A DNA stretch of 64,000 nt, taken from NCBI GenBank assembly GCA_963761305.1, contig CAVXGK010000002.1, positions 2,336,001 through 2,400,000 of the forward strand, given 5' to 3'. Under the pieces are notes generated by a model. The model was not told the DNA's origin. It did no database searches and saw only the letters and a list, made by a program, of their open reading frames with translations. Below are positions 338-56,271 of this stretch, one piece after another (within the stretch, counting starts at the first letter, position 1; each line of letters opens with the position of its first letter). The position numbers were made by a program, and so were the translations under genes. This stretch comes from an uncultured Gemmatimonadaceae bacterium. GTDB taxonomy: Bacteria > Gemmatimonadota > Gemmatimonadetes > Gemmatimonadales > Gemmatimonadaceae.

Positions 338-1440
338 CCGCCTCGCCCGCTGTCCACCCGTCCACCCGTCCACCTGTCCACCCGCTGTTGTCCGTCCGCA
401 ACCTCGTCAAGAATTTCCCCATCAAGAAAGGCGCATTCGGCAAGGCTGCCGGCGTCGTTCGCGCGGTGAACGACGTCTCGTTCGACGTGATGCCCGGCGA
501 AACGCTCGGGCTCGTCGGCGAATCGGGATGCGGAAAGTCGACCACGGGACGCATGATTCTTCGTCTCATCGAACCCACCGCCGGCCGCGTGGAGTTCGAC
601 GGCATCGACCTCACCGCGCTCGACGCGCGCGCGATGCGAACGATCCGGCGACGAATTCAGGTCATCTTCCAGGATCCCTTTTCGTCCCTCAATCCGCGCA
701 TGACCGTCGGCGCGATCGTGCGCGAGGGGCTCACGATCCACAAGATCGCCGAGGGCGCCGCGGCCGACACGCGCGTGCGGCAACTGCTCGACGAAGTCGG
801 GCTTCGTCCCGAGTACGTGTCGCGCTATCCGCATGAGTTTTCCGGCGGCCAGCGACAGCGCATCGGCATTGCCCGCGCGCTCGCCGTCGAGCCGAACTTC
901 ATCGTCTGCGACGAACCGGTCTCGGCGCTGGACGTATCGGTGCAGGCGCAGGTCATCAACCTGATGCAGGACCTGCAGCGCGATCGCGGCCTCGCCTACC
1001 TGTTCATCGCCCACGATCTGTCGGTCGTCGAACACATCGCCGACCGCGTCGCCGTGATGTACCTCGGCAAGATCGTCGAGCTGGCGAGCGCGGCCGATCT
1101 CTATCGCGACCCGGTGATGCCGTACACCCAGGCGCTGCTCTCGGCCGTTCCGGTTCCCGACCCCAGCGCCAAGAAGTCGCGCGTCGTGCTGACCGGCGAT
1201 GTCCCGTCGCCCGCGAACCCGCCAACCGGATGCGTGTTCCATCCTCGCTGCCAGCATCCGGCCAAGGATGCCGCGTGCAGCGAGATCGTTCCGCCCCTCG
1301 AGGAAAAGGCGCCGCAGCACTGGGCGGCGTGCATCAAACAGCCTCCCACCGGGGTAGACTGGCGAGTGCAACAGGCGGCGGGAGGAACGAAGCAGCCTTT
1401 CCGGTGGACCGGTGGACCGGTGGACCGGTCGACCGCGTAG
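334..1440 (+). CDS. oppF: Oligopeptide/dipeptide ABC transporter ATP-binding subunit
   Basis: Walker [10 protein letters not shown], signature [24 protein letters not shown]. Start placed at the GTGA overlap (334); TTG at 388 is an alternative. Confidence 0.9.
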
Positions 1441-1493
1441 CCCGTCGCCTTTCGCCGTTCCGGTCTACCGGTCTACCGGTCCACCTGTCAACC
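1401..1493. repeat. Inverted pair of octamer arrays, (GGTGGACC)n ... (GGTCYACC)n, spanning the oppF stop
   Basis: ccggtggaccggtggaccggtggaccggtcgacc at 1401-1434 and cggtctaccggtctaccggtccacctgtcaacc at 1461-1493. Confidence 0.85.
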
Positions 1494-1500
1494 TCTCCCA

Positions 1501-3063
1501 ATGACAATCATCGACGTCCGCGAACCAGACGTACCTGCGGCGCTGGGCGCGCGCCCGTCCGCGCTCGACGATCGCGCGCTCTTCGGGCATCCGCGCGGCC
1601 TCGGTCTCCTGTTTTTCACGGAGATGTGGGAGCGGTTCTCGTACTACGGCATGCGCGCGATCCTCGTGCTCTACCTGGTCAACGCGCTCAAGTGGGACAC
1701 GCCGCGCGCGGCGAATCTGTACGGCACGTACACGATGCTCGTGTACCTCACGCCGGTCATCGGCGGATTTCTCGCCGATCGGCTCATCGGCACACGACGC
1801 TCGCTCGTCATCGGCAGCCTGGTCATCGCGCTCGGCCACTTCACGCTGGCCTTCCCCGGGATGACCACGTTCTACGTCGGGCTCGGGCTCATCATCGTCG
1901 GCACCGGCTTCTTCAAGTCGAACGTGTCGACGATGGTCGGACAGATCTATCCCGAGGGCGATCGGCGTCGCGATTCCGGTTTCACGATCTTCTATGTCGG
2001 CATCAATGTCGGCGCGGCGCTCGGCCCGCTCTTCTGCGGAGGCTTCGCGCAGAACCCGCGCTTTGGCTGGCATTGGGGGTTCGCCTGCTCCGGCGTCGGC
2101 ATGCTGCTCGGACTCGTCACCTACCTGTGGGGCCGCGACAAGTACTTGCCCGGCATCGGCACGTCGCCGACGCGTACCAGGGTCACGGCTGTCTCGGCGG
2201 ACGCGGGCCCAAAAGCGAACACGACTCTCCACGGCGCGATCGGCGTCGTCCTCGGCGGCGTGCTCGGTTGGTTCCTCGGCGACGCGAGCGTGCTCGGCAT
2301 TCTGATGGGCGTCGTGATCGGCCCCGCGCTCACGATCAGCTTGCTCGGCTCGCACGGCGAAGAACGAAAACGCGTCGTCGCACTTTTCATCGTCGTGTTT
2401 TTCGTGATCTTCTTCTGGGCGGCCTACGAGCAGACCGGCAGCTCGATGAATCTCTTCGCCGACAAGAACACCAACCTCAAGGCCGGCTCATTCAACATTC
2501 CGTCGAGCTGGTTTCAGTCGGTGAATCCGTTCGACATCATCATCTTCGCGCCGCTGTTCGCGTGGATGTGGACGGTGCTCGGCAAGCGCCGCCGCGAACC
2601 GTCGACGGCGCTCAAGATGGTGCTCGGCCTCGCGCTGCTGGCAACGGGATTCCTCTTCATGGTCATCGGCGGCGAGCGCGCCGACACCGGCATTCTCGTC
2701 AGCCCGTTCTGGCTCGTCGCCGCATACACGTTCCACACGTGGGGCGAGCTCTGTCTCTCACCGGTCGGCCTGTCGTACGTGACGAAGGTCGCGCCCGTGC
2801 GATTCGCATCGCTCCTCATGGGCGTGTGGTTCCTGGCCAATGCCGCCGCGAACAAGATCGCCGGCGCCGTCGCCGCGTTCACCCCGACGCCCGGCGAGAA
2901 GCCGCAAGCGATCGCCGGTGGACTGGCGGGATTCATCCAGTCGGTGAGCGCGACGAATCACGGTTTCTACATGATCTTCGTCGTCGCGGGGTTCGCGGCC
3001 GCCGCGCTGATGCTGCTGTTCGTACCGCTCCTCAAACGCCTGACGAGCAGCGTGGCTGCGTGA
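1501..3063 (+). CDS. POT/PTR family proton-dependent peptide transporter (MFS)
   Basis: FGHPRGL, ExxERFSYYG motif (EMWERFSYYGM), GTGFFKSN, GELCLSPVGLS; many TM segments. Confidence 0.95.
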   Translation: MTIIDVREPDVPAALGARPSALDDRALFGHPRGLGLLFFTEMWERFSYYGMRAILVLYLVNALKWDTPRAANLYGTYTMLVYLTPVIGGFLADRLIGTRRSLVIGSLVIALGHFTLAFPGMTTFYVGLGLIIVGTGFFKSNVSTMVGQIYPEGDRRRDSGFTIFYVGINVGAALGPLFCGGFAQNPRFGWHWGFACSGVGMLLGLVTYLWGRDKYLPGIGTSPTRTRVTAVSADAGPKANTTLHGAIGVVLGGVLGWFLGDASVLGILMGVVIGPALTISLLGSHGEERKRVVALFIVVFFVIFFWAAYEQTGSSMNLFADKNTNLKAGSFNIPSSWFQSVNPFDIIIFAPLFAWMWTVLGKRRREPSTALKMVLGLALLATGFLFMVIGGERADTGILVSPFWLVAAYTFHTWGELCLSPVGLSYVTKVAPVRFASLLMGVWFLANAAANKIAGAVAAFTPTPGEKPQAIAGGLAGFIQSVSATNHGFYMIFVVAGFAAAALMLLFVPLLKRLTSSVAA

Positions 3064-3069
3064 TCGGTC

Positions 3070-4800: not shown

Positions 4801-4812
4801 GAGTCGAATTGC

Positions 4813-5388: not shown

Positions 5389-5438
5389 CGCGGTGTTGCT
5401 CCTCGGGCCGGTTCGTGTACGATACTGGACGGGTTCAT

Positions 5439-6158: not shown

Positions 6159-6179
6159 GAGCGAGACTGACGAAGCGCG

Positions 6180-6911: not shown

Positions 6912-6919
6912 TGATGCCT

Positions 6920-7169
6920 GGTGGACAGGTGGACAGGTGGACGGGTGGACAGGAACAGCCGAGCCCCCTCTAGCCCTTCTACCCCTCTAATCCCTCAAAC
7001 CGTTCAACTAGCCAGTCTCGTTCCATCCCCCTTTCAAGGACGCGCGGGTCGGACACCGGTTACCCCCTGAAACGCCTGCGCCCCGCGCGTGTATTGCACT
7101 TGGTAGATTGGATTAAGTCCTTGGGCTCGTGGTTCCCGTCCACCTGTCCACCCGTCCACCTGTCCACCT
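6920..7169. repeat. Divergent intergenic region bracketed by inverted octamer arrays
   Basis: (GGTGGACR)x4 at 6920-6951 and (GTCCACCY)x4 at 7138-7169; a degenerate CCCCTCTA repeat lies at about 6964-6996. Confidence 0.85.
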
Positions 7170-7175
7170 GCCCTC

Positions 7176-9718: not shown

Positions 9719-9774
9719 GGTGGACCGGTGGACCGGTGGACCGGTGGACCGGTGGACCGGTGGACCGGTGGACC
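9719..9774 (+). repeat. (GGTGGACC)x7 perfect tandem array 4 nt after a stop codon
   Basis: Read directly from sequence. Confidence 0.95.
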
Positions 9775-9816
9775 CGATAAGACCAACGGAGTCCACGCGA
9801 GTAAGTCAGCCGGAAG

Positions 9817-9884
9817 GCTCAAGCTGAAAGCTCAAGCTGAAAGCTCAAGCTGAAAGCTCAAGCTGAAAGCTCCCAGCTTTCAGC
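9817..9884. repeat. 13-bp tandem repeat (GCTCAAGCTGAAA)x4 ending in a hairpin
   Basis: Four perfect units at 9817-9868; gctgaaagct-ccc-agctttcagc stem at 9862-9884. Confidence 0.9.
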
Positions 9885-9974
9885 CTCTGAGCCGCCGTTC
9901 GCGTTGCTCGAGGCGAGCGCTGGGAGCTTCAATCACTTTCGACGGTCGCAGTCCGCGGCGCGGTCCACCGCCCC

Positions 9975-10196
9975 TTACGGTCGACCCGACCACCGTTCTC
10001 TGAGATTTCTCGCCGTGTCCGGACTGACGATACGGATCACGAAGTAGATCGCTAAGAGAACCAAACCCACCTTGAGCGCTATGAACAACAGCGCTACGAA
10101 CAGGCCTACGGCGAGGCCGAAAATCCCGAGGATGAATCTGAGGGCGATCAGGCCCAGTACGGCGAACAGCCCGATCGAAAAGATTGTGCGGAGCAT
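9975..10196 (-). CDS. Small membrane protein (73 aa)
   Basis: MLRTIFSIGLFAVLGLIALRFILG...: two hydrophobic helices; GGAG upstream of the ATG. Confidence 0.75.
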   Translation of the reverse strand: MLRTIFSIGLFAVLGLIALRFILGIFGLAVGLFVALLFIALKVGLVLLAIYFVIRIVSPDTARNLRERWSGRP

Positions 10197-10314
10197 TGCG
10201 GAATCTCCAGAAGAACGAAGAACCAACAGGTCCTGCTCTCTACCGTACGATCTTCCTCGCCTAACTGTTTCAGACCGAGTTTTTCTACCCGTCCACCCGT
10301 CCACCCGTCCACCC

Positions 10315-11847: not shown

Positions 11848-12014
11848 CACGGATCGAAGAACGCCCGCACGGGATCGACGTTCGCCGGCACCGGATCGAA
11901 GTCCGCCGGCACCGGATCGAAGTCCGCCGGCACCGGATCGAAGTCCGCCAGCACCGGATCGAAGTCTGACAGCAACGGATCAAAGTCCGACAGCACCGGA
12001 TGGAAGTCCGACTC
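11848..12014. repeat. 21-bp tandem repeat, about 8 units, consensus CACCGGATCGAAGTCCGCCRG
   Basis: Units at 11868, 11889, 11910, 11931, 11952, 11973 and 11994, plus a degenerate unit at 11848. Confidence 0.9.
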
Positions 12015-12791: not shown

Positions 12792-12878
12792 GGCTCCAGC
12801 TCAAGGCTCCAGCTCAAGGCTCCAGCTCAAGGCTCCAGCTCAAGGCTCCAGCTCAAGGCTCCAGCTCAAGGCTCCAGA
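12792..12878. repeat. 13-bp tandem repeat (GGCTCCAGCTCAA)x6 plus a partial unit, upstream of lipA
   Basis: Six perfect units at 12792-12869. Confidence 0.95.
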
Positions 12879-12937
12879 CCTAGCTCGACCTCCGCTACCG
12901 TCCACCCGTCCACCCGCCAACCAGGCCACCCGCTCTC

Positions 12938-15953: not shown

Positions 15954-16003
15954 GCACATGCATCCCGTCCACCCGTCCACCCGTCCACCGGTCCACCCGT
16001 AAG

Positions 16004-17341
16004 ATGGCCACCAAAGTCTTCATGGAGGCGCTCTCGCCCACGATGGAAGAAGGGCGCCTCGTCAAATGGATGAAGAACGAAGGCGACGCCGTGAAGAGCG
16101 GCGACGTGCTCGCCGAAGTGGAGACGGATAAGGCGGTCATGGAACTGGTCGCGCGCGGCGACGGCGTGCTCCGTAAGCGTCTCGTGAACGAGGGCGACGC
16201 CAGGCCGGTCGGGCAGATGGTGGCGGTTATCGCGGCTCCCGACGAAAACATCGACGCGGTGGTCGCGGAGGCCGGTTCCCAACCGGCGCCCGCCACGGCG
16301 GCTGCGCCGGCCGCCACGGCCCCACAGCAAGCGCCAGCTCCTGCAGCTCCTGCCCCGCCCCCCGCCCCCGCTCCGCCTCCGGCTGCCCCTCCGCCGCCAC
16401 TGCCCCCCGTTAGTTCCGGTCCACCGGTCAACCGCTCCACCGGTCAACCGCCGCAGCCTACCAATGGTGGGCAAGTCAGGTCCTCGCCCCTCGCTCGACG
16501 TCTCGCGTCTGACCGCGGCCTCGACATCTCCGCCGTCCAGGGCTCGGGCCCCGGCGGCCGCATCATCAAGCGCGACATCGAAGCCGCCGCCGCAGCGCCG
16601 TCAGCCGGCCGTCCACCCGTCCACCCGTCCACCCGTCCACCCGAATCGGACTTCGAGGACATTGGGCTGACGCAGATCCGAAAGACGATCGCCAAGCGTC
16701 TCGCGGAATCGATCGGGCCGATCCCGACGTTCTATCTCACCGCCGACATCGACCTCACGCGCGTCACCGAGCTGCGCGCCGCGATGCTCGAGATGGGCGA
16801 CGAGTTCAAGGTCTCGGTCAACGACGTCCTCATGAAGGCCGTCGCCACCGCCCTCGCGCAGCATCCGGAAGTGAACGCGCACTGGCTCGGCGACCGCATC
16901 CGGTATCATCACCGCGTCCACCTCGGCATGGCCGTCGCCACGAACGACGGGCTGATCGTGCCGGTGATCTTCGACGCCGACCGCAAGCGCATGAGCGAGA
17001 TCTCCGCCGAAGCACGCGAGCTCGCCAAGCGCGCGCGCGAACGGAAGCTCAAGCCCGAGGAGTACACGGGCTCCACCTTCTCGATCTCGAACCTCGGCAT
17101 GTTCGGCATCGACCAGTTCACGGCGATCATCAATCCGCCGGAGGTCGGCATTCTCGCGATCGGCACCGCGCACGACGTTGTCGTCCCGACGACGGGTGGA
17201 CGGGACAGCGCGTTCGCCGTTCAGAAACGCCTGCGTCTTACGATGAGCTGCGACCACCGCGCCGTCGACGGCGCCGTCGGCGCCACGTTCCTGCAGACGC
17301 TGAGGCGGCTGATCGAGAACCCGTTGATGCTGGTGTTCTGA
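16004..17341 (+). CDS. pdhC: Dihydrolipoamide acetyltransferase E2
   Basis: Lipoyl domain (MEALSPTMEEG, VETDKA), E3-binding domain (SSPLARRLA, GSGPGGRI), catalytic DHRAVDG. Confidence 0.96.
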   Translation: MATKVFMEALSPTMEEGRLVKWMKNEGDAVKSGDVLAEVETDKAVMELVARGDGVLRKRLVNEGDARPVGQMVAVIAAPDENIDAVVAEAGSQPAPATAAAPAATAPQQAPAPAAPAPPPAPAPPPAAPPPPLPPVSSGPPVNRSTGQPPQPTNGGQVRSSPLARRLASDRGLDISAVQGSGPGGRIIKRDIEAAAAAPSAGRPPVHPSTRPPESDFEDIGLTQIRKTIAKRLAESIGPIPTFYLTADIDLTRVTELRAAMLEMGDEFKVSVNDVLMKAVATALAQHPEVNAHWLGDRIRYHHRVHLGMAVATNDGLIVPVIFDADRKRMSEISAEARELAKRARERKLKPEEYTGSTFSISNLGMFGIDQFTAIINPPEVGILAIGTAHDVVVPTTGGRDSAFAVQKRLRLTMSCDHRAVDGAVGATFLQTLRRLIENPLMLVF

Positions 17342-19773: not shown

Positions 19774-20627
19774 CTACCGGTGGACCGGTGGACCGGTGGA
19801 CCGGTGGACCGCTAGAGCCTGAGAGCGTCGGGGTTCCAACCCCGGCCGCGCAATTCTCGGCCTTCGGCTTGGAGCCGGAAGCCGGGAGCCAGGAGCCTGG
19901 AGCTGCGTTTCCGCCCGCGGTCCCGGTCCACCGGTCAACCGGTCAACCGGTCCACCGCCTCTTAGTCGAGCATCTCGGCCTCACCCCCTACGCCGATGCG
20001 CTCGAGTATCAGCGCGCCGTCGCCAAGGCGCGCATCAGCGGCGAGATCCCGGACGACGTCCTGCTCCTCGTCGAGCATCCGCCGGTCGTGACGCTTGGCC
20101 GCACGTCGAAGGAGCGGCATCTGCTCGCGTCGCCCGCGCAGCTGGCGGCGCGCGGCATCGAGCTGTTCGAGGTGGAGCGCGGCGGCGACGTGACGTTTCA
20201 CGGGCCGGGGCAGCTTGTCGGCTACCCGATCATCGATCTCAAGCAGCATCGCCGCGACCTGCACTGGTATCTGCGCACGCTCGAGTCGGCGCTCATCGAG
20301 GCGCTCGGCGAGTTCGGGATCCCGGCCGAGCGAAACGTCGGATTCACCGGCGTCTGGACCCAGGGGCGCAAAATCGCCTCGATCGGCGTGCACGCGCGCG
20401 ACTGGGTGACATGGCACGGCTTCGCCCTCAACGTGTCGACTGACCTCACCTACTTCGACACGATCGTCCCCTGTGGCATCGACGCCGTGACCATGACGTC
20501 GATCGCCCGGGAAACGGCGGGAAACACGGTGGACATGACGCGTGTAGAATCCGCGGTCGTCACCGCGCTCGCCGCGGCCTTTGGCCTGACTCCGCGCGCC
20601 GTCGCTCGGGTCGCGGACGTCCGCTAG
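19770..20627 (+). CDS. lipB: Lipoate-protein ligase B (octanoyltransferase) with repeat-derived N-terminal extension
   Basis: LVEHPPVVTLG, RGGDVTFHGPGQLVGYPI, KIASIG, HGFALN, IVPCG. Plausible in-frame starts are GTG 19770 (GTGA overlap with lpdA) or TTG 19869. Confidence 0.92.
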   Translation: MTTGGPVDRWTGGPLEPESVGVPTPAAQFSAFGLEPEAGSQEPGAAFPPAVPVHRSTGQPVHRLLVEHLGLTPYADALEYQRAVAKARISGEIPDDVLLLVEHPPVVTLGRTSKERHLLASPAQLAARGIELFEVERGGDVTFHGPGQLVGYPIIDLKQHRRDLHWYLRTLESALIEALGEFGIPAERNVGFTGVWTQGRKIASIGVHARDWVTWHGFALNVSTDLTYFDTIVPCGIDAVTMTSIARETAGNTVDMTRVESAVVTALAAAFGLTPRAVARVADVR

Positions 20628-20679
20628 GTTTTTGGGAAGGCCGTCCACCCGTCCACCCGTCCACCCGTCCACCCGTCCA

Positions 20680-21105
20680 ATGATCCATTCTTCCGTCAGC
20701 CGCAGGACCGTTTTCGTCGGCGCGGCGTTGGCTTCGGCCGCGCTCATCGCCGCGTGCGAGGACAAGCGAGTCAAGGAGCTCAACGCCGGCATCACCCGCG
20801 ACTCGGCCGTCACCGTGATGGCGCACGACCTCAAGCCCGGCGCGACGTCGGACTCGTTCCCGAACGTGTACACGCGTGAGCGGTTTCTCCTCGGCGGAAA
20901 GAGCGTGGAAGTGCTCTACTTCACCCCGGAGAACGACAAGGCCCGCGTGGCCGCCACCGGTCAGGAAGCGCTGAAGGTCAGGGACTCCATCCCATACAAC
21001 AGACTCACGCCGATCGTGTTCATCGACAATCGGCTGGCTGGCCGAGGATGGGCGTACTGGGACAGCATGTCGACCGCCAACAAGATCCCGGTGAAGAAGC
21101 ACTAG
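20680..21105 (+). CDS. Hypothetical lipoprotein
   Basis: Lipobox LIAAC after a basic/hydrophobic signal; ATG abuts (GTCCACCC)x4 at 20643-20679. Confidence 0.75.
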   Translation: MIHSSVSRRTVFVGAALASAALIAACEDKRVKELNAGITRDSAVTVMAHDLKPGATSDSFPNVYTRERFLLGGKSVEVLYFTPENDKARVAATGQEALKVRDSIPYNRLTPIVFIDNRLAGRGWAYWDSMSTANKIPVKKH

Positions 21106-27321: not shown

Positions 27322-28407
27322 TCATCGAACCGGCAGATTGCCTGGCTCGGGGCCGAGCCAGGTTCGAATGGAACCGAAGGGGTCGTCGGGCTTGGATTTG
27401 GCGAGGTCGATGATGCGGGAAATCGCGCGACGGAGGTCGCCGTCTTCGTGCACCCAGATGCGATCGAACAGGTCCAGATCCGTGTTGTAGATTCGGTGCG
27501 CGAGGAGTGCGGCGTTGTCGAGCCGCACGCGAGGCAGGGCCGCCGCGGGAATGGTGCGGAGCTGCGGGCCGAGCGTCGTCACCAGATCGTGTCGCGCGCG
27601 CGCATAGAGTGAGTCGCGCGCCGCAATGCGGGCCAGCGAGTCGGACGGGTGCGCGCGGAACGCCGAGTCGACGCGCGCGTAGAGCGTCGCCCAGAACTGC
27701 GCCAGCAGCTTGTCGTCCGCCCACCGCGCGTCGGCTTGATCGGCCGCCGCCGGTTCGCCGCGCGAGCGGAAGAACCACGCCGACCCGCGCGCACCGACGA
27801 AGCTGGCGAACGATTCGTTGAACACCGCTTGCCCCGACGCGTAAAACGTGTTGTGCGTCAGCTCGTGAATGACCGTGTTCGCGAGGTCGATGGTGTCGGC
27901 GCGCAACGACGTGGACAACAGTGGATCGTTGAACCAGCCGAGCGTGCTGAACGCCGGCGAGGGACGCAGGTAGACGTCGAAACCCTTGCTCGCCAAGTCG
28001 TGTTCCGCCGACTGCGCCGCGCCAAAATCGAAGAACCCCTTGTACGGCACGCGTCCGACGATCGGAAACCACCACGTGTACGGCGTGAGCCGGTCGGGGT
28101 ACGCGCCCGACAGCACGAGGACGAGCGTGTCTCGGTCGAGATGGCTATAGGTCGTGAAACTCTGGCGCGTGCGGAGATGGATCGAGTCGGCCGCAAACGC
28201 GCGCGCCGCCAGCACGAGGCGCAGCTTGGCTGCCGTTTCCGCCGGCGTCGCCGCATCGGCCACGATGGCCTCGATCGAGCGGCGCCGAGCCAGAATCCCG
28301 CCCTCCGCCCACGCCGCGCGGACGAGATACCGCCCGGTCGGCGAAAGGGCGAGCCAAGCAATCAACAGGAGAACGAGAACCGCAAGTACGCGACGGATTC
28401 GACGCAT
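27322..28407 (-). CDS. Predicted zinc aminopeptidase (DUF2265-like)
   Basis: WWFPIVGRVPYKGFF, FSTLGWFNDP, IHELTH (HExxH), FNESFA; N-terminal membrane anchor. Confidence 0.85.
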   Translation of the reverse strand: MRRIRRVLAVLVLLLIAWLALSPTGRYLVRAAWAEGGILARRRSIEAIVADAATPAETAAKLRLVLAARAFAADSIHLRTRQSFTTYSHLDRDTLVLVLSGAYPDRLTPYTWWFPIVGRVPYKGFFDFGAAQSAEHDLASKGFDVYLRPSPAFSTLGWFNDPLLSTSLRADTIDLANTVIHELTHNTFYASGQAVFNESFASFVGARGSAWFFRSRGEPAAADQADARWADDKLLAQFWATLYARVDSAFRAHPSDSLARIAARDSLYARARHDLVTTLGPQLRTIPAAALPRVRLDNAALLAHRIYNTDLDLFDRIWVHEDGDLRRAISRIIDLAKSKPDDPFGSIRTWLGPEPGNLPVR

Positions 28408-28419
28408 TGATGAACTTTA

Positions 28420-28521
28420 GGTGGACCGGTGGACCGGTGGACCGGTAGACCGGGACTGCAAACGGCGATGAACGCGGTTTCGACGCCGTTCGCGGGCGAT
28501 CCACCGGTCCACCCGTCCACC
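28420..28521. repeat. Inverted octamer-array pair in the divergent aminopeptidase/dnaE intergenic region
   Basis: (GGTGGACC)x3 plus GGTAGACC at 28420-28451; (N)RTCCACC x3 at 28498-28521. Confidence 0.85.
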
Positions 28522-28534
28522 GCTATTTTTCGCT

Positions 28535-31500
28535 ATGTCATTCGTCCACCTGCACTGCCACTCCGAATTCTCCCTCCTCGACGGCGCCAATCGGATCGAT
28601 GACCTGATCCGTCGGGCTCAGGAGTTCGAGCAGCCGGCGGTCGCCATCACCGATCACGGCAACCTCCACGCGGCCTGGGAGTTCCAGGAGCACGCCCGCG
28701 CCGCGGGAATCAAGCCGATCATCGGGATGGAGGCCTACGTCGCGCCCGGAGACCGGCGCACCCGCGGCCGGACGACCCCGACAGCCAAGCCCTACTACCA
28801 TTTGATCCTGCTCGCGCGGGACGCCGTCGGCTACAAGAACCTCGTCAAGCTCTCGTCGCTCGCGTACACGGAAGGCTTCTACTCCCGACCGCGCGTCGAC
28901 CGCGAGCTGCTGGCCAAATACAGCGAGGGGTTGATCGTCTCGTCGGCCTGTCTGGCCGGTGAGGTCGCCCAGCATCTCATGGCCGAGGACTACGGCGCGG
29001 CCCGCGAGGCGGCGAGCTGGTACGCCGAGCTGTTCAAGGATCGCTACTACCTCGAGGTGCAGGCGCACGACAGCGAGGGGCAGGCGATCCTCAACCCACG
29101 CGTTTTCGCGCTGGCCACGGAGCTCGGCCTGCCCGTCGTCGCCACCAACGACGCGCACTTCCTCAAGAGCGACGACCACGACGCGCACGACGTCCTGCTC
29201 TGCATCGGGCTCGGCAAGGATCGCAGCGATCCCGACCGGATGCGCTACGATCGCGGGCTCTACTTCAAGAGCGGGCCCGAGATGGCGAAGCAGTTCGCCG
29301 ATCGGCCCGACGTCATCGAGAACACGCTGCGCATCGCCGATCAGATCAACGTCGAGTTCGGGAAGAAGTACCACCTGCCCGCCTTCCCGCTGCCGGCCGG
29401 CGTCGCGACTGAGAACGACCTGCTGATGACGCTCGCCGTCGACGGCGCGAAGGAGCGCTACGGCGACCCGCTCCCCGCCAACGTAAGCGAACGCCTCGAC
29501 TACGAGCTAGGCGTCATTACCAAGACCGGCTACGCCGGCTACTTCCTCATCGTCGCCGACTTCATCAAGGCGGCGCGCGATCGCGGAATTCCCGTCGGAC
29601 CGGGCCGCGGTTCGGCCGCCGGGTCGCTCGTCGCCTACTCGCTGCGCATCACCGACGTCGATCCGCTCTTCTACGATCTGCTGTTCGAGCGTTTTCTCAA
29701 TCCCGAACGCATCTCGATGCCCGACGTCGACGTCGACTTCTGCTTCGAGCGCCGCGGCGAGGTGATCGAGTACGTCCGCCAGAAGTACGGCCGGGAGTCG
29801 GTCTGCCAGATCGTGACGTTCGGGACGATGAAGTCGCGCGCCGCGATCAAGGACGTCGGCCGCACGCTCGGCTTCACGCCCGCGGAAACCGATTCGCTCG
29901 CCAAGCTGATTCCCAACCAGCCGAACTTCTCGCTCACCGTCAAAGAAGCGATCGAGAAGCTCGACGACGTCGGCCGCCTCTACCGCACCGACGAGCGCTA
30001 CCGCCAGCTCCTCGACTACGCCTCGGCGCTGGAAGGACTGTCGCGACATACGGGCGTCCACGCCGCGGGCGTCGTCATCGCGCCGGGACCGGTGGACGAC
30101 TACGTGCCGATCTGCACGCAGTCCACCAAGGGCTCCGGTTCGATCGACGAAGAGCAAGTCATCGTGAGCCAGTACGACATGAACTGTCTCGAGCATGCCG
30201 GAATGCTCAAGATGGATTTCCTCGGGCTCACCACGCTCACCGTCTTGCACGATGCGCTCGTCGCGATCGAACAGCGCCACGGCTCGGCGCCCGACTTGAA
30301 CACGATTCCGATGGACGACCCGCCGGTTTATCAGATGTTGCGCGCAGGACGCACAGTCGGCGTGTTTCAATTCGAATCCCCACTCGCAACCGACCTCCTC
30401 CGAGGAATGCGCTGCGACCGGTTCGACGATCTCGTCGCGTCGAACGCGCTCATGCGACCCGGCCCGCTCGACGCCGGGATGCACCGCGTCTATCAGCGGC
30501 GCAAGCGCGGCGAGGAGCCGGTGACCTACGCGCTCCCGGAGCTCCAGCAGATCCTCGAGCCGACGTACGGCGTCATCACCTATCAGGAGCAGGTGATGCG
30601 AATCGCGCAGTTGTTGGCCGGCATCTCGCTCGCCGAAGCCGACGTGCTGCGCAAAGCGGTCGGCAAGAAGGACGCGGAGCTCATCCGCGTGGAGCTCGGC
30701 AAGTTCGTCGAGAAGTCGGTCGCGCGCGGCTACGACCGGCGGATCATCGAAGAGCTGGCGGGACAGATCGAGACGTTCGGCCGCTACGGCTTCAACAAGT
30801 CGCACTCGGTCGCGTATTCGGTGATCTCCTACCAAACCGCATGGCTCAAGGCGCACTACCCGGCCGAGTTCATGGCGGCGCTACTGTCGTCGTCGATCGG
30901 CGACACGGACAGCGTCGTGAAGTTCATCAACGAGGCGCGCGAGCTGGGAATCGAGGTGCTCGCGCCGGACGTGAACGAGTCGGGCTACAAGTTCACGGTC
31001 ATCGGCGACAAGCGAATCCGTTTCGGGCTGGGCGCCATTCGAAACGTGGGACGATCGGCGATCGATTCGATGCTCGCCGCGCGGGCCGAGAAACCTTTCA
31101 GCTCGTTCTACGACTTCTGCGAGCGTGTGGACCTCCGCCTCTGCAACAAGCGCGTGATCGAAGCGATGATCGCCTCGGGCGCGCTCGACAATCTCGGTGG
31201 CCACCGCGCGCAGTTCGCGGCGGTGCTCGACAGCGCGCTGGCCGAGGCGTCGCTCAAGCAGCAGGAAGCGGCGGTGGGACAGTTCTCGCTGCTCGGCGGC
31301 GTCGACGAGTCGGCCGGGACAGCGGCCAAGCCTCGCGTGTTGCCCAACATCGCGCCCACTCAGCGAATCCGAGCGCCTCACGAAAGAGAAGGAGATCCTC
31401 GGTTTCTATATCTCGGGGCATCCGTTGGAGCCGTTCCGCGTCGAGTGCGAGCTGTTCGCCACGCACACGGTCTCGGAGCTCGGCAAGTGGACGGACCAGC

Positions 31501-33012: not shown

Positions 33013-33037
33013 CAGGTGGACCCGTCCACCCGCATTC

Positions 33038-34270
33038 ATGTCTCACCTGATCGAAGTCGCCTTCAAGGGCAACCGAAAAGATTTCTTCCTCTGGGAGTCC
33101 GAGGATCCGCCGCCGCTCAAAGCCGCGGTGATCGTCGACGCCGACCGGGGTGAGGACCTCGGCCGCGTGCACGCGTTGGGCGAGCTCGCCGCCAAGCGAA
33201 ACGCCGGAACGCCGCACGGCTACGGCAACATGGGCACGACCAAGAAGGCGCGTCGCCTGGCGAGCAAGGACGACGAGCGTCGCGCGAGCGACCTACGGGT
33301 GCAGGACGACGACGCGCGGCGACGCGCCATGGAGCGCGTGAACGCCAACAAGCTGGCGATGAAGCTGTCCGACGCCGAATGGCAGTGGGACCGCAAGAAG
33401 CTCACGTTGTATTTCACCGCCGAAAAGCGAATCGACTTCCGCGCGCTCGTGCGCGAGCTGGCGTCGATGTTCCGCACGCGCATCGAGCTGAAGCAGATCG
33501 GCGTGCGCGACGAAGCCAAGCGTCTCGATGGCGTCGGCCGCTGCGGCCGCCAATATTGCTCGGCGTCGTGGCTCCCCGAGCTCCGTCCGGTGAACCTCGG
33601 CGTGGCGAAGGATCAGCGCTTGTCGCTCAACCCGTCGCAGATCTCCGGGGCATGCGGGCGGCTGATGTGCTGTCTGCGGTACGAACACGAGTTCTACGTG
33701 CAGAGCCGCAAGCGTTTCCCGAAGGAAGGCAGAATCGTGAAGACGAAAGTCGGCGAGGAGAAGGTCGTCGCCAACGACATCTTTCGCGAACGCGTCACGC
33801 TGCGCGGCGACGACGGCGAGCAACGCACGATTGCCTTGCTCGATTTGCGCGAAGAGGCCGAGTCAGTCGGCGCGCCGCTCCCCTTCGCGCCCGCGCCGGC
33901 GATCGTGACGCTCGACGAGCACGAGGAGGATATTGTCTTCGAGGAAGCCGTCGTAGCGGACAGGGTGGTCGTGGTGGAACCGGCCGAAGAAGGTGGACCG
34001 GTGGACGTGTGGACCGGTGAGCCGGGGGAAACCGCGGAAGAAGAAGAAGACGGTGAACCCGAGGAAACCGCTGAACCGTTCGAACCTTCCCGTGGTCCAG
34101 CCGTCAAGACGTCCACCCGTGAGGTCGGCCAGCCGGGCGAACACACACCGCCCGGGACCGACCACATCAAACGTCCCCGCCGCCGACGCGGTCGTCGCGG
34201 CGGACGACGCAACCGCCCGGGCGGAAATCGCGGTCCGTCGGACGGCACGCCACCGGCCAACAGCGATTGA
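33038..34270 (+). CDS. PSP1/RicT (YaaT) family protein with acidic/basic C-terminal tail
   Basis: LYFTAEKRIDFRALVREL, RIELKQIGVRDEAK, GRCGRQYCS, ISGACGRLMCCLRYE. Confidence 0.9.
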   Translation: MSHLIEVAFKGNRKDFFLWESEDPPPLKAAVIVDADRGEDLGRVHALGELAAKRNAGTPHGYGNMGTTKKARRLASKDDERRASDLRVQDDDARRRAMERVNANKLAMKLSDAEWQWDRKKLTLYFTAEKRIDFRALVRELASMFRTRIELKQIGVRDEAKRLDGVGRCGRQYCSASWLPELRPVNLGVAKDQRLSLNPSQISGACGRLMCCLRYEHEFYVQSRKRFPKEGRIVKTKVGEEKVVANDIFRERVTLRGDDGEQRTIALLDLREEAESVGAPLPFAPAPAIVTLDEHEEDIVFEEAVVADRVVVVEPAEEGGPVDVWTGEPGETAEEEEDGEPEETAEPFEPSRGPAVKTSTREVGQPGEHTPPGTDHIKRPRRRRGRRGGRRNRPGGNRGPSDGTPPANSD

Positions 34271-37398: not shown

Positions 37399-38241
37399 TC
37401 ACCAAGATCCGCTGGAGCCGCCACCGCCGAAACCACCGCCACCACCGAAACCTCCGAATCCGCCACCACCACCGCCGCCGAACCCGCCGCCCCCCCAGCC
37501 ACCGCCGCCACCGCCTCCCCTCCAGCCGCCACCGCCTAAGGGCAGGAAGATCGGCAAGCACCCTCCGCCACGACGGCCTCTGGTCACCAACGATATGATG
37601 AAAAAGAGCAGGAAGAACCAGACGATCGGCGGAATGCCACCACCTGAGTTGCTGCGTCGCTGCACCGGCTGAACGTCGATTTGCGGCTGGACGTTCGGAT
37701 TGACCTGGAAGTTGAATTCGTTCGCGAAATGGGCGGCGATGCTGTCGACCATCAACAGAATGCCGGAGCCGTAATCACGATTTTTGAAATAAGGAATCGC
37801 GAGGTCGCGGAACTCGCCCGTCGTCGCGTCGGTGAGGAATCCTTCGGCGCCGAAGCCGACCTCGGTGCGAATGTGGCCTTGCCCATCGGCGCTCGTTTCC
37901 TTCGGCACCACGAGCAGAATGACGCCGGTGTTCTTCGCCGGCTGGCCGGGATTGCCCTTCTTGCCCACGGCCCACTGCCGGCCGATCTCGAGTCCCACCT
38001 CTTCGACCGGCCGCCCTTTGAGATCCGGCAGCGTGACGACGACGATCTCACCGCCCGACTTGGCCTTCACATCGTCGATGATTGCCGAGATGGCGGCGAC
38101 TTTGTCCGGAGGAATGACGTGCGCGAAGTCGTTGACGTAGCCGACCGGCGCGGGAAGCTGGAGCGCCTGCGCCTGGGCGCTCCCATGCACCACCGCGGTC
38201 AGCGAGGCGAGAATCCAGAGCGCGAGCGAGCGGATGTGCAC
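37399..38241 (-). CDS. TPM-domain membrane protein (YgcG-like)
   Basis: GYVNDFAHVI, RTEVGFGAEGFLTD, TM helix, Gly-rich tail ending GGGGSSGSW. Confidence 0.9.
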   Translation of the reverse strand: MHIRSLALWILASLTAVVHGSAQAQALQLPAPVGYVNDFAHVIPPDKVAAISAIIDDVKAKSGGEIVVVTLPDLKGRPVEEVGLEIGRQWAVGKKGNPGQPAKNTGVILLVVPKETSADGQGHIRTEVGFGAEGFLTDATTGEFRDLAIPYFKNRDYGSGILLMVDSIAAHFANEFNFQVNPNVQPQIDVQPVQRRSNSGGGIPPIVWFFLLFFIISLVTRGRRGGGCLPIFLPLGGGGWRGGGGGGGWGGGGFGGGGGGGFGGFGGGGGFGGGGSSGSW

Positions 38242-39110: not shown

Positions 39111-40391
39111 GTGCGCTTTCCGGTCCAGCTCGGATATCGCGCGCTGGCGCAGATCGCCCGCGGCGCGGCGCTCGTCACGCCGAACAGCAACTCGAAGGTG
39201 CTCCGCTCGCTGCGCGCGCGACGCGGTATTCGCGCGCGTTACCGGCGATGGGCTGACGCGCACCGCGACGCAAATCGTCCGCTGCTCTGGATGCACGCCC
39301 CGTCCGTCGGCGAAGGATTGCAGGCGCGTCCGATCCTCGAGCTGGCGCGCTCGCGCCGTCCGGACGTTCAGATCGCCTACACGCACTTCTCGCCGAGCGC
39401 GGCGGCATTCGCCCGCTCGCTCGACGTGGACTTCGCCGACTATTTGCCGTTCGACACGCCCGGCGACGCCCGCGCCGCGCTCGACGCGCTCCGGCCCACG
39501 GCGCTCGTCTTTTCCAAGCTCGACGTCTGGCCGATGATCACGCGCGAGGCACGCGCGCGAGGCGTTCATCTGGGCCTCGTCAGCGCCACGCTCGCCCGCG
39601 GATCGTCCCGCCGTTCGCTCGGCGCAAGCGCGTTGCTGCACGACGCCTACGCGGCGCTCGACGTCGTCGGCGCGATCGACGAAGCCGACGCGGATCGACT
39701 CGTGCAGCTCGGCGTCCGCCCGCAGACGATCGTCGTCACCGGCGACACGCGCTACGACCAGGTCTGGAGTCGTGCGCAGCGCGTGGATCGGGAGGCGCCG
39801 ATGCTGGCGCGGCTCAGAGACGCGCGACCGACGCTCGTCGCCGGCTCGACGTGGCCACCCGACGAAGCGGTGCTGCTTCCCGCGTTCGAATCGCTGCGCC
39901 GCTCCGGAATCGACGTCCGTCTCGTCATCGCACCACACGAGCCGTCCGCACAGCACGTGGCGGAGCTGATCGCGTGGGCCGAGCGTGGCTCGCTACGCGG
40001 CGCTCGGCTCGACGACGCGACGAGCGACTCGGACGTCGTCGTGGTGGATCGCGTCGGAGTGCTCGGCGATCTCTACGCCGTCGCCGACGTCGCATTCGTG
40101 GGCGGCGGCTTTCACGCGGCCGGTTTGCACTCGGTGCTGGAGCCGGCGGCTTTCGGCGCGCCGGTGTTGTTCGGTCCGCGCTTTCAGAACAGCCGCGACG
40201 CGGCGCTTCTCGCGCAGCGCCACGGCGGCGCGGCGATCGGCGATACAGCTGAAGCGGAGCGGCGGTTGCGCTTCTGGCTCACGGATCCCGGCGGGCGCCG
40301 CGAGGCCGGTGACTTTGCGCGCGCCCTGGTCCGCAGTGGTGTCGGCGCCGCCGAACGATCCTTCGCGTTGGTCGATCGGCTCCTGCGGTAA
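39111..40391 (+). CDS. kdtA: 3-deoxy-D-manno-octulosonic acid transferase
   Basis: WMHAPSVGE, YLPFD, TGDTRYD, AGSTW, VGGGF, HSVLEPA; start GTG 39111 inferred. Confidence 0.9.
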   Translation: MRFPVQLGYRALAQIARGAALVTPNSNSKVLRSLRARRGIRARYRRWADAHRDANRPLLWMHAPSVGEGLQARPILELARSRRPDVQIAYTHFSPSAAAFARSLDVDFADYLPFDTPGDARAALDALRPTALVFSKLDVWPMITREARARGVHLGLVSATLARGSSRRSLGASALLHDAYAALDVVGAIDEADADRLVQLGVRPQTIVVTGDTRYDQVWSRAQRVDREAPMLARLRDARPTLVAGSTWPPDEAVLLPAFESLRRSGIDVRLVIAPHEPSAQHVAELIAWAERGSLRGARLDDATSDSDVVVVDRVGVLGDLYAVADVAFVGGGFHAAGLHSVLEPAAFGAPVLFGPRFQNSRDAALLAQRHGGAAIGDTAEAERRLRFWLTDPGGRREAGDFARALVRSGVGAAERSFALVDRLLR

Positions 40392-40524
40392 GGCCCTACC
40401 GCCGCGCGAGCCACCATCGCACAGCGGCTAAAGTTGAACGCAGATGCGTTGGTCGACCGGCTCCCTGCGGTAAGCTCCTAACCGCCGTGCGAGCCACGAT
40501 CGCGTAACGGCTAAAGTTGAACGC
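40365..40524. repeat. Imperfect tandem duplication (period 81 bp) of the kdtA 3' end and downstream DNA
   Basis: gcgttggtcgaYcggctc...cggctaaagttgaacgc at 40365-40441 and 40446-40524. Confidence 0.85.
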
Positions 40525-44836: not shown

Positions 44837-45035
44837 ACGGAGGGATGGTAATCGAGGGGCGTGGGTGGGTGGCCTGGGGGCTTGTGAAAAATATCACAAG
44901 CAGCCGATTCGAGCAAGCACGAGTTCTCGGCCGAGGCGGAACGCGGGTGCTAAATCGCTGTTCCCCCATGAATTACGGGCGGACCGGCGGATCGGGGCCA
45001 GACCGAGGCCGGCTTCGATCGGCGTCGGAGCAAAA

Positions 45036-45135
45036 TTCAACGCAGATGCCGCGGATCATGACTGCAATGCCGCAGATCAAACCCATTGGGTCATCCGTGG
45101 GAATTGTCGTTCTGATCTGCGGCATCTGCGTTGAA
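45036..45135. repeat. Third copy of the CGCAGATGCCGCAGAT palindromic element
   Basis: ttcaacgcagatgccgcggatca (45036-45058) pairs with tgatctgcggcatctgcgttgaa (45113-45135). Confidence 0.85.
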
Positions 45136-45395
45136 CTCTTCTTGCCCGGCAATCGTAGCCGACGGGGCGCAATGGAACGATCCCGGTCCCCGGGCAGATC
45201 GGTAGACCGCGACTAAGCCGACCATCCACGCACTCGTTTGCCTGCCCTCGCACTCAAACGATGACGCAATTACTCGGAGCGGCCCCAAACTACACGCTCA
45301 CTCGTCGCCCGCGCTGGCGCGCCGCCGTCAAAGCCGTCAAGCCGTCAAGCGCCCGCTGTTCACCCGTCCACCCGTCCACCTGTCCACCCACCCCT

Positions 45396-45806
45396 ATGGC
45401 CGGCACAGTTCGCGACCTCAAAGTCTGGCAAGAAGCCGTCGCGCTTGCCGCGGAAACCGTTCGCTCGGCCCGACAATCGGCCAAACGCGAAACCAAAGTG
45501 GTCACGGACCACATCATGTTGTCCGCGTTGTCCGCCGCGGGCGCCATCGCCGACGGCTACGGCCGCTACACAGCGCCCGAACAGCGACAACTCTATCGCA
45601 CCGCCAAACGCGAGCTGCTCAAGCTCGAGACGCAACTCGCCATCGCGCGCCAAGCGGACCTCGTCTCGGCTCACACACACGCGGATCTCTCGGCGCGCAT
45701 CCAAGGAGTGAACCGCCTGCTCGGCGGCTACCTCGTGTACCTCGAGCGCCAACTGGAGGCCGCCAACCAAGCGCGTGAGTCGCCGGCCCAGCACCCACAA
45801 CAGTAG
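45396..45806 (+). CDS. Four-helix-bundle protein (23S rRNA intervening-sequence protein / bAvd-like family)
   Basis: RDLKVWQEAVAL start, AIADGYGR (cf. NIAEG), YRTAKRELLKLETQLAIA; 136 aa, all helical. Confidence 0.82.
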   Translation: MAGTVRDLKVWQEAVALAAETVRSARQSAKRETKVVTDHIMLSALSAAGAIADGYGRYTAPEQRQLYRTAKRELLKLETQLAIARQADLVSAHTHADLSARIQGVNRLLGGYLVYLERQLEAANQARESPAQHPQQ

Positions 45807-48858: not shown

Positions 48859-48993
48859 TGGTGGTTCCTGTTGAAAGGCTGGTGGACAGGATGACAGGTG
48901 GACGGGTGGACAGCGAGCAAGTGATCGTTTGTGTCTACGCGTCGTCAGCAGTAGCCGTTCACCCGTCGAGCCGTCCACCCGTCCACCCAAGTC

Positions 48994-50437: not shown

Positions 50438-50446
50438 CCGCCCCGC

Positions 50447-52039: not shown

Positions 52040-52083
52040 GGACGGGACGTTAGTGAGATGCCCCGGACCGACGCTAGTTGTCG

Positions 52084-53268: not shown

Positions 53269-53276
53269 CGTGCGAT

Positions 53277-56271
53277 TCACCGCTTTATCGGTCCACCGGT
53301 CCACCCGTCCACCCGTCCACCCGTCCACCCGCTTACGGTCTCCCGCCGCGCCCCACCGGGCTCCCCGCCTGCACCGCACGCCGCGCCGGGCGCGTTCGTT
53401 CCATCCTTTAGAATCTTCTGACGCGCCAGGTAGGACTCGCCGTCGGTGATCCACGACGCCGGCGGATCGCCCTTGAGGAAGTAGCCGAACCACTCGAGCT
53501 GGCGGTGCAGATAGTCGGCTTGGCTCTCCGGACGCGCGACGTTGTGGTTCTCGCCCTCGTACACGAGATACACCACCTGCTTGCCGAGCCGCCGGCCGAA
53601 GTTGTAGAGCTCTTCGCTCTGGAAGTGGTTCACGTTGCCGTCGGCGTCGCCTTCCTCGAGCAGCAGCGGCGTGTGGAGCGAATCCACCGCGTAGACGGTC
53701 GAGTTGCGGATGTACGCCTGCGGATCTTCCCACAGCGGGACCTGCATGCGCTCCTGACTCGTCTCGTAGTGGCCCGTCTCGGGAAGCCCGCTGTTGCCCG
53801 ACGTGTAGCCGTACATGCTGATCAAGTCGGTGAGCGGCGCGCCGGCGATCGACGCGGCGAACGTGCCGTGGTTGTGCACCGCATAAAACGCCGACTGATA
53901 GCCGCCCCACGAGTGTCCCATGTTGCCGACGTGCTTCGGGTCGATGTCGGCGACCTTCGCTTCGACGGCGGCGACGGCCGACGTCACGCAATCGAGCCCG
54001 GAATATCCCGGATTGCGCGCCTGAAACACGATGTCCGGCCGCAGCACGAAGTAGCCGTTCTGGCTGAACACTTCTGTGTTATAGGGATTCCGCTCGTTGG
54101 GCATCAGATACTGATGGAATCCCTGCGACAGCTTCTCATAGTAGTAGACGACCATCGGATACTTCTTGCCCGGCTCGTAGTTGGCCGGATACGTCAGCAT
54201 CATCTGGAGCTTGTCGCCGCGCTTGTTGGCGTAGTTCATCAGGACCTGCTTGCCCCACGCGTAGTCGCTCTGGAAGGCGTTCGTCGCCGACACGCGCTTC
54301 CCGTCGGCCAATGACGCACCGGCGACGTAGTAGTTCGGCGCCTCCTCGGCCGTCTGTTCCTCGAGCAGGAAGACGTCGGCGTTTTCGGCACGCCGGAGGC
54401 CGGTCACGCTCTTGTCGAGCCACACGAGCGGTTGCGCAGGCTGGCCGATCGTGAGCCGCGAGTATCCGCTCTTCTTGTTGTACTCGCCGGTCGCCGAGAG
54501 AACGAGCGGCTTCGACGCGTCGATTGTTCTTCCTTCTCCGTCGAGTTGACACGGCGTCGAGCGGGCCCCGGCCCCGCCTCGTCCTCCGCGGCCGCCGCCA
54601 CCGCCGCCGAATCCACCACCTTCGTTCACGCATCGAAAGACCGTCGAATCCTCTCGGCCGTGCGTCAGACGCGTGGCCGACGATCCATCGATCGCGATCT
54701 GCCAGAGGTCGAAGCGGTCGTTCACCAGCACCGACTTCTCACCGGTGGTGAATCCGGCGAGCCCGTACGCGCGGCGCTCCGGCACCGGATGGTCGTCCTC
54801 GGCGTTCACGAAACCGACCTTGAGCTTGCCGGTGAGATTCGTGCGCGTACCGCTCTGAAGGTCGAGCACCATCCACTGGCCGTCCTGCTGGTACGTGGCG
54901 TAGCGGCCGCTCGGGCTGAGCGTGGCGCCGTAAGGCGACTTGGTGAGGATCTTCGTGCGCTTGCCGGTGCCGACGTCGACCGAATAGACGTCGCGAACCT
55001 GGCGGCCGGACATGAACTCCTTGGCGTACGGGCCTTCGTCGCTCGCCAGAGCCACGGCGCCGTTCTCGGAGAGCTGCACCGTCTCGAGCGGATCGTCGCT
55101 CAGCCGCACGACCGACGGGCCGCCGACGTGCCAGGCGACGAGCGTGGTGCGCGAGCGATCCTGGCCGGCGCTCACTTCCTGCTGGTGGAACTCGCGGACG
55201 TCCTTCCAGTGCCACACCTGCACGCGTGCCGGCGGCAGCTCACCCGGTGCGCGGCGCTCGGCGGGAGGCGCCTTCGCTTCCCGCGGTGCGACACCGAAGA
55301 ACAGCGTGGCGCCATCGTCCGACCAGCTCGGCGCGCGATACGCGGCGACGCGGAGTCCGGCCGGGAACGAGTGATCGTTCGAGAAATCATATGTCTGTTT
55401 CGCGGCGGAGGCGCCGACGCCGTGCCAGGCCAGAACGGCGTAGGCCGTGTCGGCGAAACGCGCTGTCCGTCTTGCTGCGCAGGGCGACGAGGTCGGCGGA
55501 ATGCGACCGCCACGTGAGGCCCGTGTAGAGCGCGTCGCTGGCGTCGAGCGAACGGACGACACCAGTCTTTGTCTCGAGCACCTGGACGCCGTTCCCCGTG
55601 TGGCCGTCGACGTCGATCGTCATGGCGAGCATCGACCCGTCGTCGTTCCACGCGCTCTCGGACACGTTGCCGAACGCCAGCTCGGTGCCCGCGTCGAGGT
55701 CGCGCACGATCACGTCGGCGGCGCGTCGGCCGGCCGCCGGATAGCGGCGCAGCGCCACGTGCGAGCCGTCGCTGCTCAGCGTGTACGACTGGATGTCGTC
55801 GAGCGTGGTGAGCGTTCCCGTGCGCAGATCGACCACGCCGACCTTGTTTCGATTCGGAGCGGTGCCGCCTTCGGCTGCCGGTTCACCGCCGCCGCGACCG
55901 CCGCGACCACCGCCGCCGCCGGCGCGTCCGCGCCCGCCGCGACCGCCCGCGGTGTCGGGCGTGATCGTGTAGAGCAGCCAGCGGCTATTGCCGGTGAACT
56001 GCGGATTCGTCGCCGAGCGCGCCGTCGTTTCCTTGTCGGTACCGACCGCGCGGTAGTGAAGCTCGGTCGATCCGTTGCCGCGCCGCAGATCGAAGGCGAG
56101 CCACTTTCCGTCGGGCGACAACGCGCCGGCGCCGAGTGTCTCCCATTTCGCGTAGTCGGCGCTGGTGAGGGTCGGCTTCGCCGGAGCGTGTTGGGGGGGC
56201 TGTTGCGCGGCGAGGGGTGCCGCGAGGATCGCGGCGGCGGCGATGGTGGAGAAGCGAAGTGCGCTCGACAT
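53277..56271 (-). CDS. S9 prolyl oligopeptidase/acylaminoacyl peptidase family; frameshift at about 55457, probable true stop at 53333
   Basis: Signal peptide, SPDGKW propeller repeats, GHSWGG nucleophile, GDADGNV, GENH. Removing one G near 53352 gives the C-terminus PGGRGGRP*. Confidence 0.88.

Follow-up and report, generated by a model that had tools for sequence, protein, structure and literature searches.

Polarised octamer arrays at gene junctions of a Gemmatimonadaceae genome and the armed four-helix-bundle cassettes they resemble

Why should one eight-base unit lie in tandem at gene boundaries, in one orientation before start codons and in the other behind stop codons? The question is raised by the stretch analysed here (the window), 64,000 nucleotides of an uncultured Gemmatimonadaceae bacterium at G000:C2:2336001-2400000, where G000 is the genome (assembly 5.2 Mb, 66% GC, 93% complete) and C2 the contig. 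The unit has the core GGTGGAC in its G-form and GTCCACC in its C-form, both read on the sense strand of the neighbouring gene, and the rule is C-form before starts and G-form after stops. An array was scored as at least three units with one mismatch tolerated, or as two exact units. Genes were called with our own crude hexamer caller, of which the stops are reliable and the starts less so. We find that the arrays are probably gene-less copies, remnants or landing pads of a cassette that would move between gene junctions and carries a gene of the TIGR02436/PF05635 profile family (a four-helix-bundle gene) between inverted arms, because their unit, their order and their contact with stops and starts equal those of the cassette's arms.

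The longest octamer array of G000, with 24 units, lies outside the window. Together with a four-unit complement it brackets a TIGR02436/PF05635 gene (G000:C1:1510307-1510992). Inverted arms at a score threshold of 18 were found at eight of the nine four-helix-bundle loci in G000, compared with 4 of 834 control genes (300-600 nt long). Each armed family in G000 has its own repeat unit, and the unarmed ninth locus is the window gene that starts at 45396. Copies of the other G000 arm families at gene ends were too few for a polarity test, and the GACGTCAGA family was left unscored because its regular expression gave zero matches. Among other genomes 52 of 66 four-helix-bundle loci are armed, with the G-richer arm upstream in 43 of the 52; the 66 were drawn from array-rich genomes and their close kin, a non-random sample, after 14 of 80 loci had been dropped (seven duplicates or G000's own, seven with no or a weak profile match).

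The order within a cassette is host stop, G-arm, four-helix-bundle gene, C-arm, and then a host stop or start. As this layout is symmetric, a G-arm follows a stop and a C-arm precedes a start on either strand. For the enclosed genes the polarity is inverted, the G-form standing before their start and the C-form after their stop. The arms are thus oriented by the rule where the host genes are concerned and against it for the gene they enclose, and the latter is therefore cargo. A gene-level code, one of the readings offered in an earlier note made from the window's letters alone, is contradicted by the same inversion. In G017 the cassette folds as a loop closed by terminal inverted repeats.

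Several other observations concern the cassettes themselves. Two near-identical armed cassettes, one of them frameshifted, lie at G000:C1:31068-31375 and C2:78539-78841, and their similarity points to a recent move or duplication. Unrelated host genes at G000:C1:1727483 and C2:3395885 are each flanked by one shared palindromic element, a further dispersed family. At the Bacteroidales-type loci L112-L138, differing cassettes share GGATTAAG-like and TATTAC-T-rich motifs between the left arm and the start codon, which are possibly a promoter. A common promoter-like motif upstream of cassette genes was rejected as unspecific, with 15 intergenic matches.

The state of single sites differs between sister genomes. 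G005, G017 and G019 share one locus with an ortholog of the octamer-armed gene (80-84% identity) between the same arms; G022 has its ortholog, armed alike, at a second locus. Where those three have the cassette, G000 shows a gap of 30 nt that contains a single unit, 6 nt past the stop. The G000 cassette site is occupied in G005 and G017 by a solo G3/G4 arm (the figure gives the number of units) directly behind the stop, in G019 by an arm from another family, in G015 by another repeat and in G011 by a different cassette. An orthologous site that is full in one genome can therefore be empty in a sister, or bear a solo arm or the arm of a different family there, and a solo polarised array can match a cassette's left arm.

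Three gene junctions were compared by eye across 12 genomes. The pdhB-pdhC junction holds five unit families over 8 of the 12, and accA-ricT four families in 8 of 12, with a gap of 1-2 nt in the remaining 4; lpd-lipB is occupied in 9 or 10. Octamer arms are missing from the dnaE promoter in 18 outgroup genomes, which mostly have a plain promoter adjoining the start codon. Genomes of the array clade carry inward arms there, both with one unit or its one-base variant. The outgroup promoters (window 28400-28540) have TTGACA-like and TATCTT-like boxes directly before the ATG, a position that suggests a leaderless mRNA; in the array clade the -35 part is replaced by the arms and the -10 part kept. 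Five other assemblies have arrays at orthologous sites as well. At the G005:C3 site orthologous to window 9719-9975 (L195), a transposase fragment, which we take from its translated motif to be IS481-like, is enclosed by a long inverted repeat that belongs to another arm family.

Across G000 we counted 221 arrays, 177 of them intergenic. The octamer is by far the most over-represented spaced repeat, with 158 clusters at spacing 8 against 0.4 expected. Near stops, 88 arrays are in the G-form and 23 in the C-form, 17 of the latter filling a short gap where they fit the other neighbour's rule; near starts, 30 are in the C-form and 2 in the G-form. Of the 177 intergenic arrays, 102 are oriented by the rule and have no more than 10 nt between their outer end and a gene end. 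Random placement in the same gaps gave 29 +/- 4, with a maximum of 44 in 2000 trials. The genome-wide count and orientation test proposed in the earlier note thus bear out its claim that the repeats are not random slippage, as the bias holds genome-wide and is unexplained by base composition.

We give next to no credence to the idea that the bias is an artefact of local base composition, replication strand or assembly error. Leaders do have a slight excess of C (skew -0.08), as it would have them, and no G skew is seen behind stops; from composition the G share should be 0.53 after stops and 0.36 before starts, against 88/111 and 2/32 observed, which refutes composition as the source. Both forms run along both contigs, and assembly error sits poorly with arrays at orthologous sites of other assemblies. 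A replication-strand bias was rejected, since most 100-kb bins contain both forms and there is little GC skew. Also rejected was microhomology with the stop codon: stop-array distances have no 8-base register, the sole exception being cases where a variant unit itself provides the TAG. A preference for typical core genes was weak (median coding score 0.439 vs 0.424, p 0.018).

Close pairs, less than 150 nt apart, run G-then-C in 29 cases and C-then-G in none. At least two inward partner units accompany 72 of the 221 arrays, compared with 15 that have outward partners, and 149 arrays are solo. Array length has its mode at four units (57 of the 177 intergenic arrays), and 65 of 90 near-stop G arrays begin 1-7 nt past the stop. 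The repeats associated with GxxExxY genes have the same polarity (21 vs 1 at stops), with 20 G-then-C pairs against 0. Rfam returned only weak microRNA hairpin matches, far under the gathering score, for two cassette loci and the dnaE locus.

The closeness of the G arrays to stops would suit translation signals selected by the host from slippage products, with structure behind stops (termination structure, or stalling as at repetitive extragenic palindromic (REP) elements), unstructured C-rich leaders, and four-helix-bundle genes that are merely decorated. Solo C arrays are indeed unstructured, the same junctions are refilled in many genomes, structure behind stops has been described (PMC7518266; this and the other papers are cited from the accessible part of each), and REPs within 15 nt of a stop cause stalling (PMC12306157). 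We nevertheless think this account unlikely: the rule is inverted at the armed four-helix-bundle genes, the unit is not conserved and near relatives have empty junctions, and slippage explains neither the 29:0 ratio of inward pairs nor the four-unit peak. By analogy with the same two papers, effects of the arrays on termination or coupling are plausible.

The four-unit mode and the polarity also match what PMC4692102 describes for the Xanthomonas repeat GGGAATC, for which a G-quadruplex has been proposed; such a structure would apply to (GGTGGACC)4 and (GGCTAGAC)4. As an explanation of the arrays here it is very improbable, because four GGG tracts occur in only 27 of the 141 arrays of at least four units, and because the units that sister genomes have at these sites, in matching orientation and often in runs of four, are GCTDGAC, which contains one GG at most.

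The octamer is present in 8 of 24 genomes of the genus and in 0 of 290 from other genera of the family. Two related units behave alike. GGTGGWAC arrays occur in 6 of 31 genomes, including 3/3 with the matching armed gene, and GCTDGAC arrays in 5 of 31, again including 3/3 with the matching armed gene and none in G000, where the site is empty. These are partial replicates of the match between array and cassette. In other phyla the octamer gave 38 matches, of which 30 were fetched and 29 viewed; it surrounds a four-helix-bundle gene in 4 of 5 octamer genomes, one with a weak upstream arm.

Within the genus the arm unit tracks the protein subclade, as it should if each four-helix-bundle pentamer bound its own repeat, in RNA or DNA, and the dispersed arrays were its sites. 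Such a regulon would have the G017 protein favour GGTGGACC arms over the GCTTGACG arms borne by a paralog. The family forms a pentameric ring (PMC4990558) and is homologous to Avd, a protein of diversity-generating retroelements (PMC10053308), which also speaks for binding. We hold this reading to be improbable all the same. Unrelated subclades are flanked by the same octamer, the matching gene is frameshifted in the G000 assembly and was not found in G015, and the flanking genes are mixed housekeeping genes whose sites turn over between sisters.

A number of results weigh against a cassette origin of the arrays. G000 has one octamer-armed gene for about 220 arrays, and in this assembly the reading frame of that gene shifts near the 3' end when compared with its orthologs, through decay or assembly error. 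The 149 of 221 arrays with fewer than two inward partner units are polarised nonetheless (62 G-form after stops; 21 C-form vs 2 G-form before starts), so that intact pairs alone fail to explain the bias. About 25 arrays lie within coding sequence and are hard to derive from cassette loss. The octamer-rich genomes are each other's closest kin (dnaE 86-89%), so they count as a single gain. No matching cassette was among the loci examined in 3 of the 6 GGTGGWAC genomes and 2 of the 5 GCTDGAC genomes. G015 (98% complete) has 176 octamer matches and octamer arms at none of the seven loci examined out of nine; its closest gene has GGTAGGCC arms, which are unspread (4 matches, all at the cassette). 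Nor was a matching cassette seen in G024 (8/11 loci; 61% complete), G004 or G044. The octamer-flanked proteins of other phyla fall in separate, unrelated subclades (support values not shown), and therefore unit and protein did not travel together. Comparison of orthologous intergenic regions, as the earlier note had proposed, brought out presence/absence turnover between sisters but no target duplications by eye at filled versus empty junctions, and the interiors are variable. No transposase or linked reverse transcriptase was seen, and the Y1/HUH profile PF01797 has no match in G000. The single reverse transcriptase of G000 sits among insertion sequence (IS) fragments, far from the cassettes.

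If the arrays do derive from cassettes, a cassette would enter tight junctions, or would recombine through its tandem units into arm sites already there; alternatively, an enzyme would move it. The gene, and often one arm too, would be lost afterwards, and arm length would change through slippage. Both arms could switch unit jointly through hairpin-guided correction. Selection would preserve the G-then-C order, we propose, because a C-rich run without structure can be borne ahead of a start, and one that is structured or rich in G behind a stop. The Avd-like pentamer is a candidate arm-binding factor.

The window itself holds 56 GTCCACC and 39 GGTGGAC cores. Its 21 strict arrays, where the earlier note had counted about 20, compare with 2.7 predicted from the genome average (about eightfold), which makes it unusually array-rich. 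The features are as follows (positions of the window; + or - strand, or none where the region is divergent).
352..382, + strand: solo C-form array of 4 units, about 5 nt before the oppF TTG start at 388; G024 and G022 have a GTCCAGC unit at this site, and four outgroups have no array
1403..1493, + strand: paired G4...C4 element across the oppF stop, with a 30-bp stem (fold z -8.1); the 1403 array is inside the last codons of its open reading frame (ORF; stop 1440), and the C array 1463-1493 ends 7 nt before the POT start at 1501
6920..7168, no strand: G4 and C4 arms, one at either end of a divergent intergenic region, each a C-form ahead of its gene, with gaps to the start of 8 nt (6920-6950, minus gene 6911) and 7 nt (7138-7168, GT2 gene)
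9719..9970, + strand: G7 arm starting 4 nt past the stop, nested 13-base repeat and single C unit at a convergent stop
10291..10313, + strand: solo C3, 1 nt before a glycine-oxidase-like gene; absent in 5/5 sisters
12900..12914, + strand: C2 array behind a 13-base array, 23 nt before the lipA TTG; absent in 5/5 sisters
15967..15997, + strand: solo C4 in the pdhB-pdhC gap, 6 nt before the pdhC start
16419..16641, + strand: two in-frame C4 arrays (at 16419 and 16611) in pdhC linkers, coding sequence
19779..19956, + strand: paired G4...C4 with nested hairpins between lpd and lipB, the G-form 5 nt after the stop (fold z -8.0)
20643..20673, + strand: solo C4, 6 nt before the ATG at 20680
28420..28521, no strand: paired G4...C3 in the divergent dnaE promoter region (fold z -6.7); 28420-28450 ends 12 nt before the minus gene 28407, and 28499-28521 ends 13 nt before dnaE
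33015..33030, + strand: one G unit, starting 2 nt after the stop, and one C unit (33024-33030), ending 7 nt before the start, in the accA-ricT gap; no significant fold (z -1.3)
33992..34014, + strand: in-frame G3 array within ricT (PSP1), coding sequence
45358..45388, + strand: solo C4, 7 nt before the window's four-helix-bundle gene
45396..45806, + strand: four-helix-bundle gene (PF05635) without arms of its own, at a locus conserved across the genus
48881..48987, + strand: paired G...C element between a sigma-70-type promoter and tRNA-Ala (fold z -4.3); the C array 48973-48987 ends 6 nt before tRNA-Ala, and the 48897 array is preceded by the promoter, not by a stop
53291..53329, - strand: G5 array in the last codons of an S9 peptidase ORF (stop 53277)

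Measured against this list, the placement first described for the window is confirmed, with some corrections. C-form arrays had been put 0-13 nt before starts, and most of the sites named lie at 1-13 nt; the array at 12900 is further from lipA. G-form arrays do follow the stops at 9719, 19779 and 33015, while those at 1403 and 53291 are inside last codons, and what had been entered separately as 33015 and 33024 is one G unit with one C unit. The arrays at 16419, 16611 and 33992 are in coding sequence, 48897 has a promoter ahead of it, and 352-382 at oppF had not been listed among the sites. Long hairpins, expected of all G-then-C pairs, are predicted for four window pairs (z -4.3 to -8.1) and not for the single-unit pair at 33015. 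The four-helix-bundle gene at 45396..45806 is treated like a host gene, so that its description as an ordinary one was right for that copy; the armed cassette lies elsewhere.

Other sequences of the window lie beside these arrays. The lipB frame (19788-20627) is open across the C arm in G000, so lipB may have an N-terminal extension made of translated repeat units; in the sisters the ATG comes after the arm. The 13-base tandem arrays at 9813-9872 and 12792-12877, nested beside octamer arrays, resemble the arms of a four-helix-bundle gene at C1:796607. Two palindromes are without a gene: one at 45030-45135 is of the CGCAGATG type, which elsewhere in G000 brackets a GxxExxY (PF13366) gene, and one at 40365-40524 is an 83-base tandem pair. 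A 21-base repeat of 7.7 copies spans 11850-12010, and a proline-rich coding repeat 37417-37536.

Neither the 7-8-base tandem repeats of large bacterial genomes nor the S23p/four-helix-bundle family had an explanation. Full cassette, solo arm, another family's arm and empty junction at orthologous positions join the repeats to the protein family, and a published 'G-quadruplex' repeat family fits the cassette layout. The arms rewrite promoters, gene ends and protein linkers, and are thus a fast source of change in core operons. Beyond this we raise, as a speculative possibility only, a class of mobile element not yet described. In it an Avd-like pentamer without a known catalytic site would recognise its own arms and, with a host enzyme, write arms or entire cassettes into translation-termination junctions. 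Such elements would have given rise to the 7-8-base repeats that abound in many phyla, including the 'quadruplex' repeats of Xanthomonas and Nostoc, and to the ORF-bearing intervening sequences of rRNA.

There is good evidence that the octamer belongs to an armed gene cassette that we did not find in print. In the literature within reach, which left out most subscription papers and the bioRxiv supplements, we found no paper on the octamer or on four-helix-bundle genes tied to dispersed repeats. In REP/REPIN-RAYT systems a transposase gene is flanked by a repeat that also occurs elsewhere in the genome, in hundreds of intergenic inverted pairs near stops. The octamer system is like them in having one gene flanked by a repeat that is dispersed too. 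It differs in that no Y1 transposase was found in G000, its units are 7-16-base tandem repeats rather than 20-40-base palindromes, and the flanked four-helix-bundle gene, unlike RAYT, has no known catalytic motif. It is also unlike a MITE (miniature inverted-repeat transposable element), since no target-site duplication was seen by eye and element length is not uniform. Still, among the options first offered for the window, a directional repeat of MITE or REPIN type fits best. Cyanobacterial short tandemly repeated repetitive sequences (STRRs) are short tandem repeats dispersed in intergenic DNA; the octamer is alike in this, with other units and in another phylum. Avd offers a homologous pentameric four-helix-bundle protein (PMC10053308), but the cassettes, unlike diversity-generating retroelements, have no reverse transcriptase, template or variable repeat nearby.

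The closest published repeats are the polarised heptamers of Rehm et al. 2015 (PMC4692102), GGGAATC in Xanthomonas and GGGGA(C/T)T in Nostoc, for which a G-quadruplex reading was favoured; the authors did not find them linked to mobile elements. Like the octamer, the heptamers have their G-rich strand within 50 nt after stops and its antisense before starts, a four-unit mode, inverted pairs, a similar number of copies (about 190) and no replication-strand bias. The octamer differs in having eight bases and mostly no GGG tracts. It is thus a new unit of a known polarised repeat type; the earlier note had not recognised the motif as described, which holds for the octamer itself and not for the polarity. 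Xanthomonas repeat 15 of the same paper is the left arm of an XCC0516 cassette: it lies 6 nt past bccP and runs over into the start of XCC0516, a solved pentamer (2GSC). In metagenome loci (not whole genomes) with the Xanthomonas heptamer, 4 of 9 run on into an XCC0516-like gene, and in the 3 that are sufficiently long a complementary arm lies directly before accC, the gene being between accB and accC.

The 23S rRNA intervening sequences with S23p of Coxiella and Leptospira are excised by RNase III (PMC4990558). The RNase III profile PF14622 matched 0 of 41 family genomes (G000 and 40 others, the majority of them 95% complete or more) and 0 of 5 genus genomes, and PF00636 gave no match in G000; PF14622 was found in 8 of 14 control genomes and in 5/5 genomes of other phyla. 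The family may therefore lack RNase III, the cassette and array system would be independent of it, and RNA-processing stems of the RNase III type, another early suggestion for the window's hairpins, are unlikely. Unlike the S23p sequences, the cassettes lie between protein genes and not in 23S rRNA, their arms are tandem repeats, and they have many gene-less copies. In both, a PF05635 gene lies within a loop closed by terminal inverted repeats (PMC4990558).

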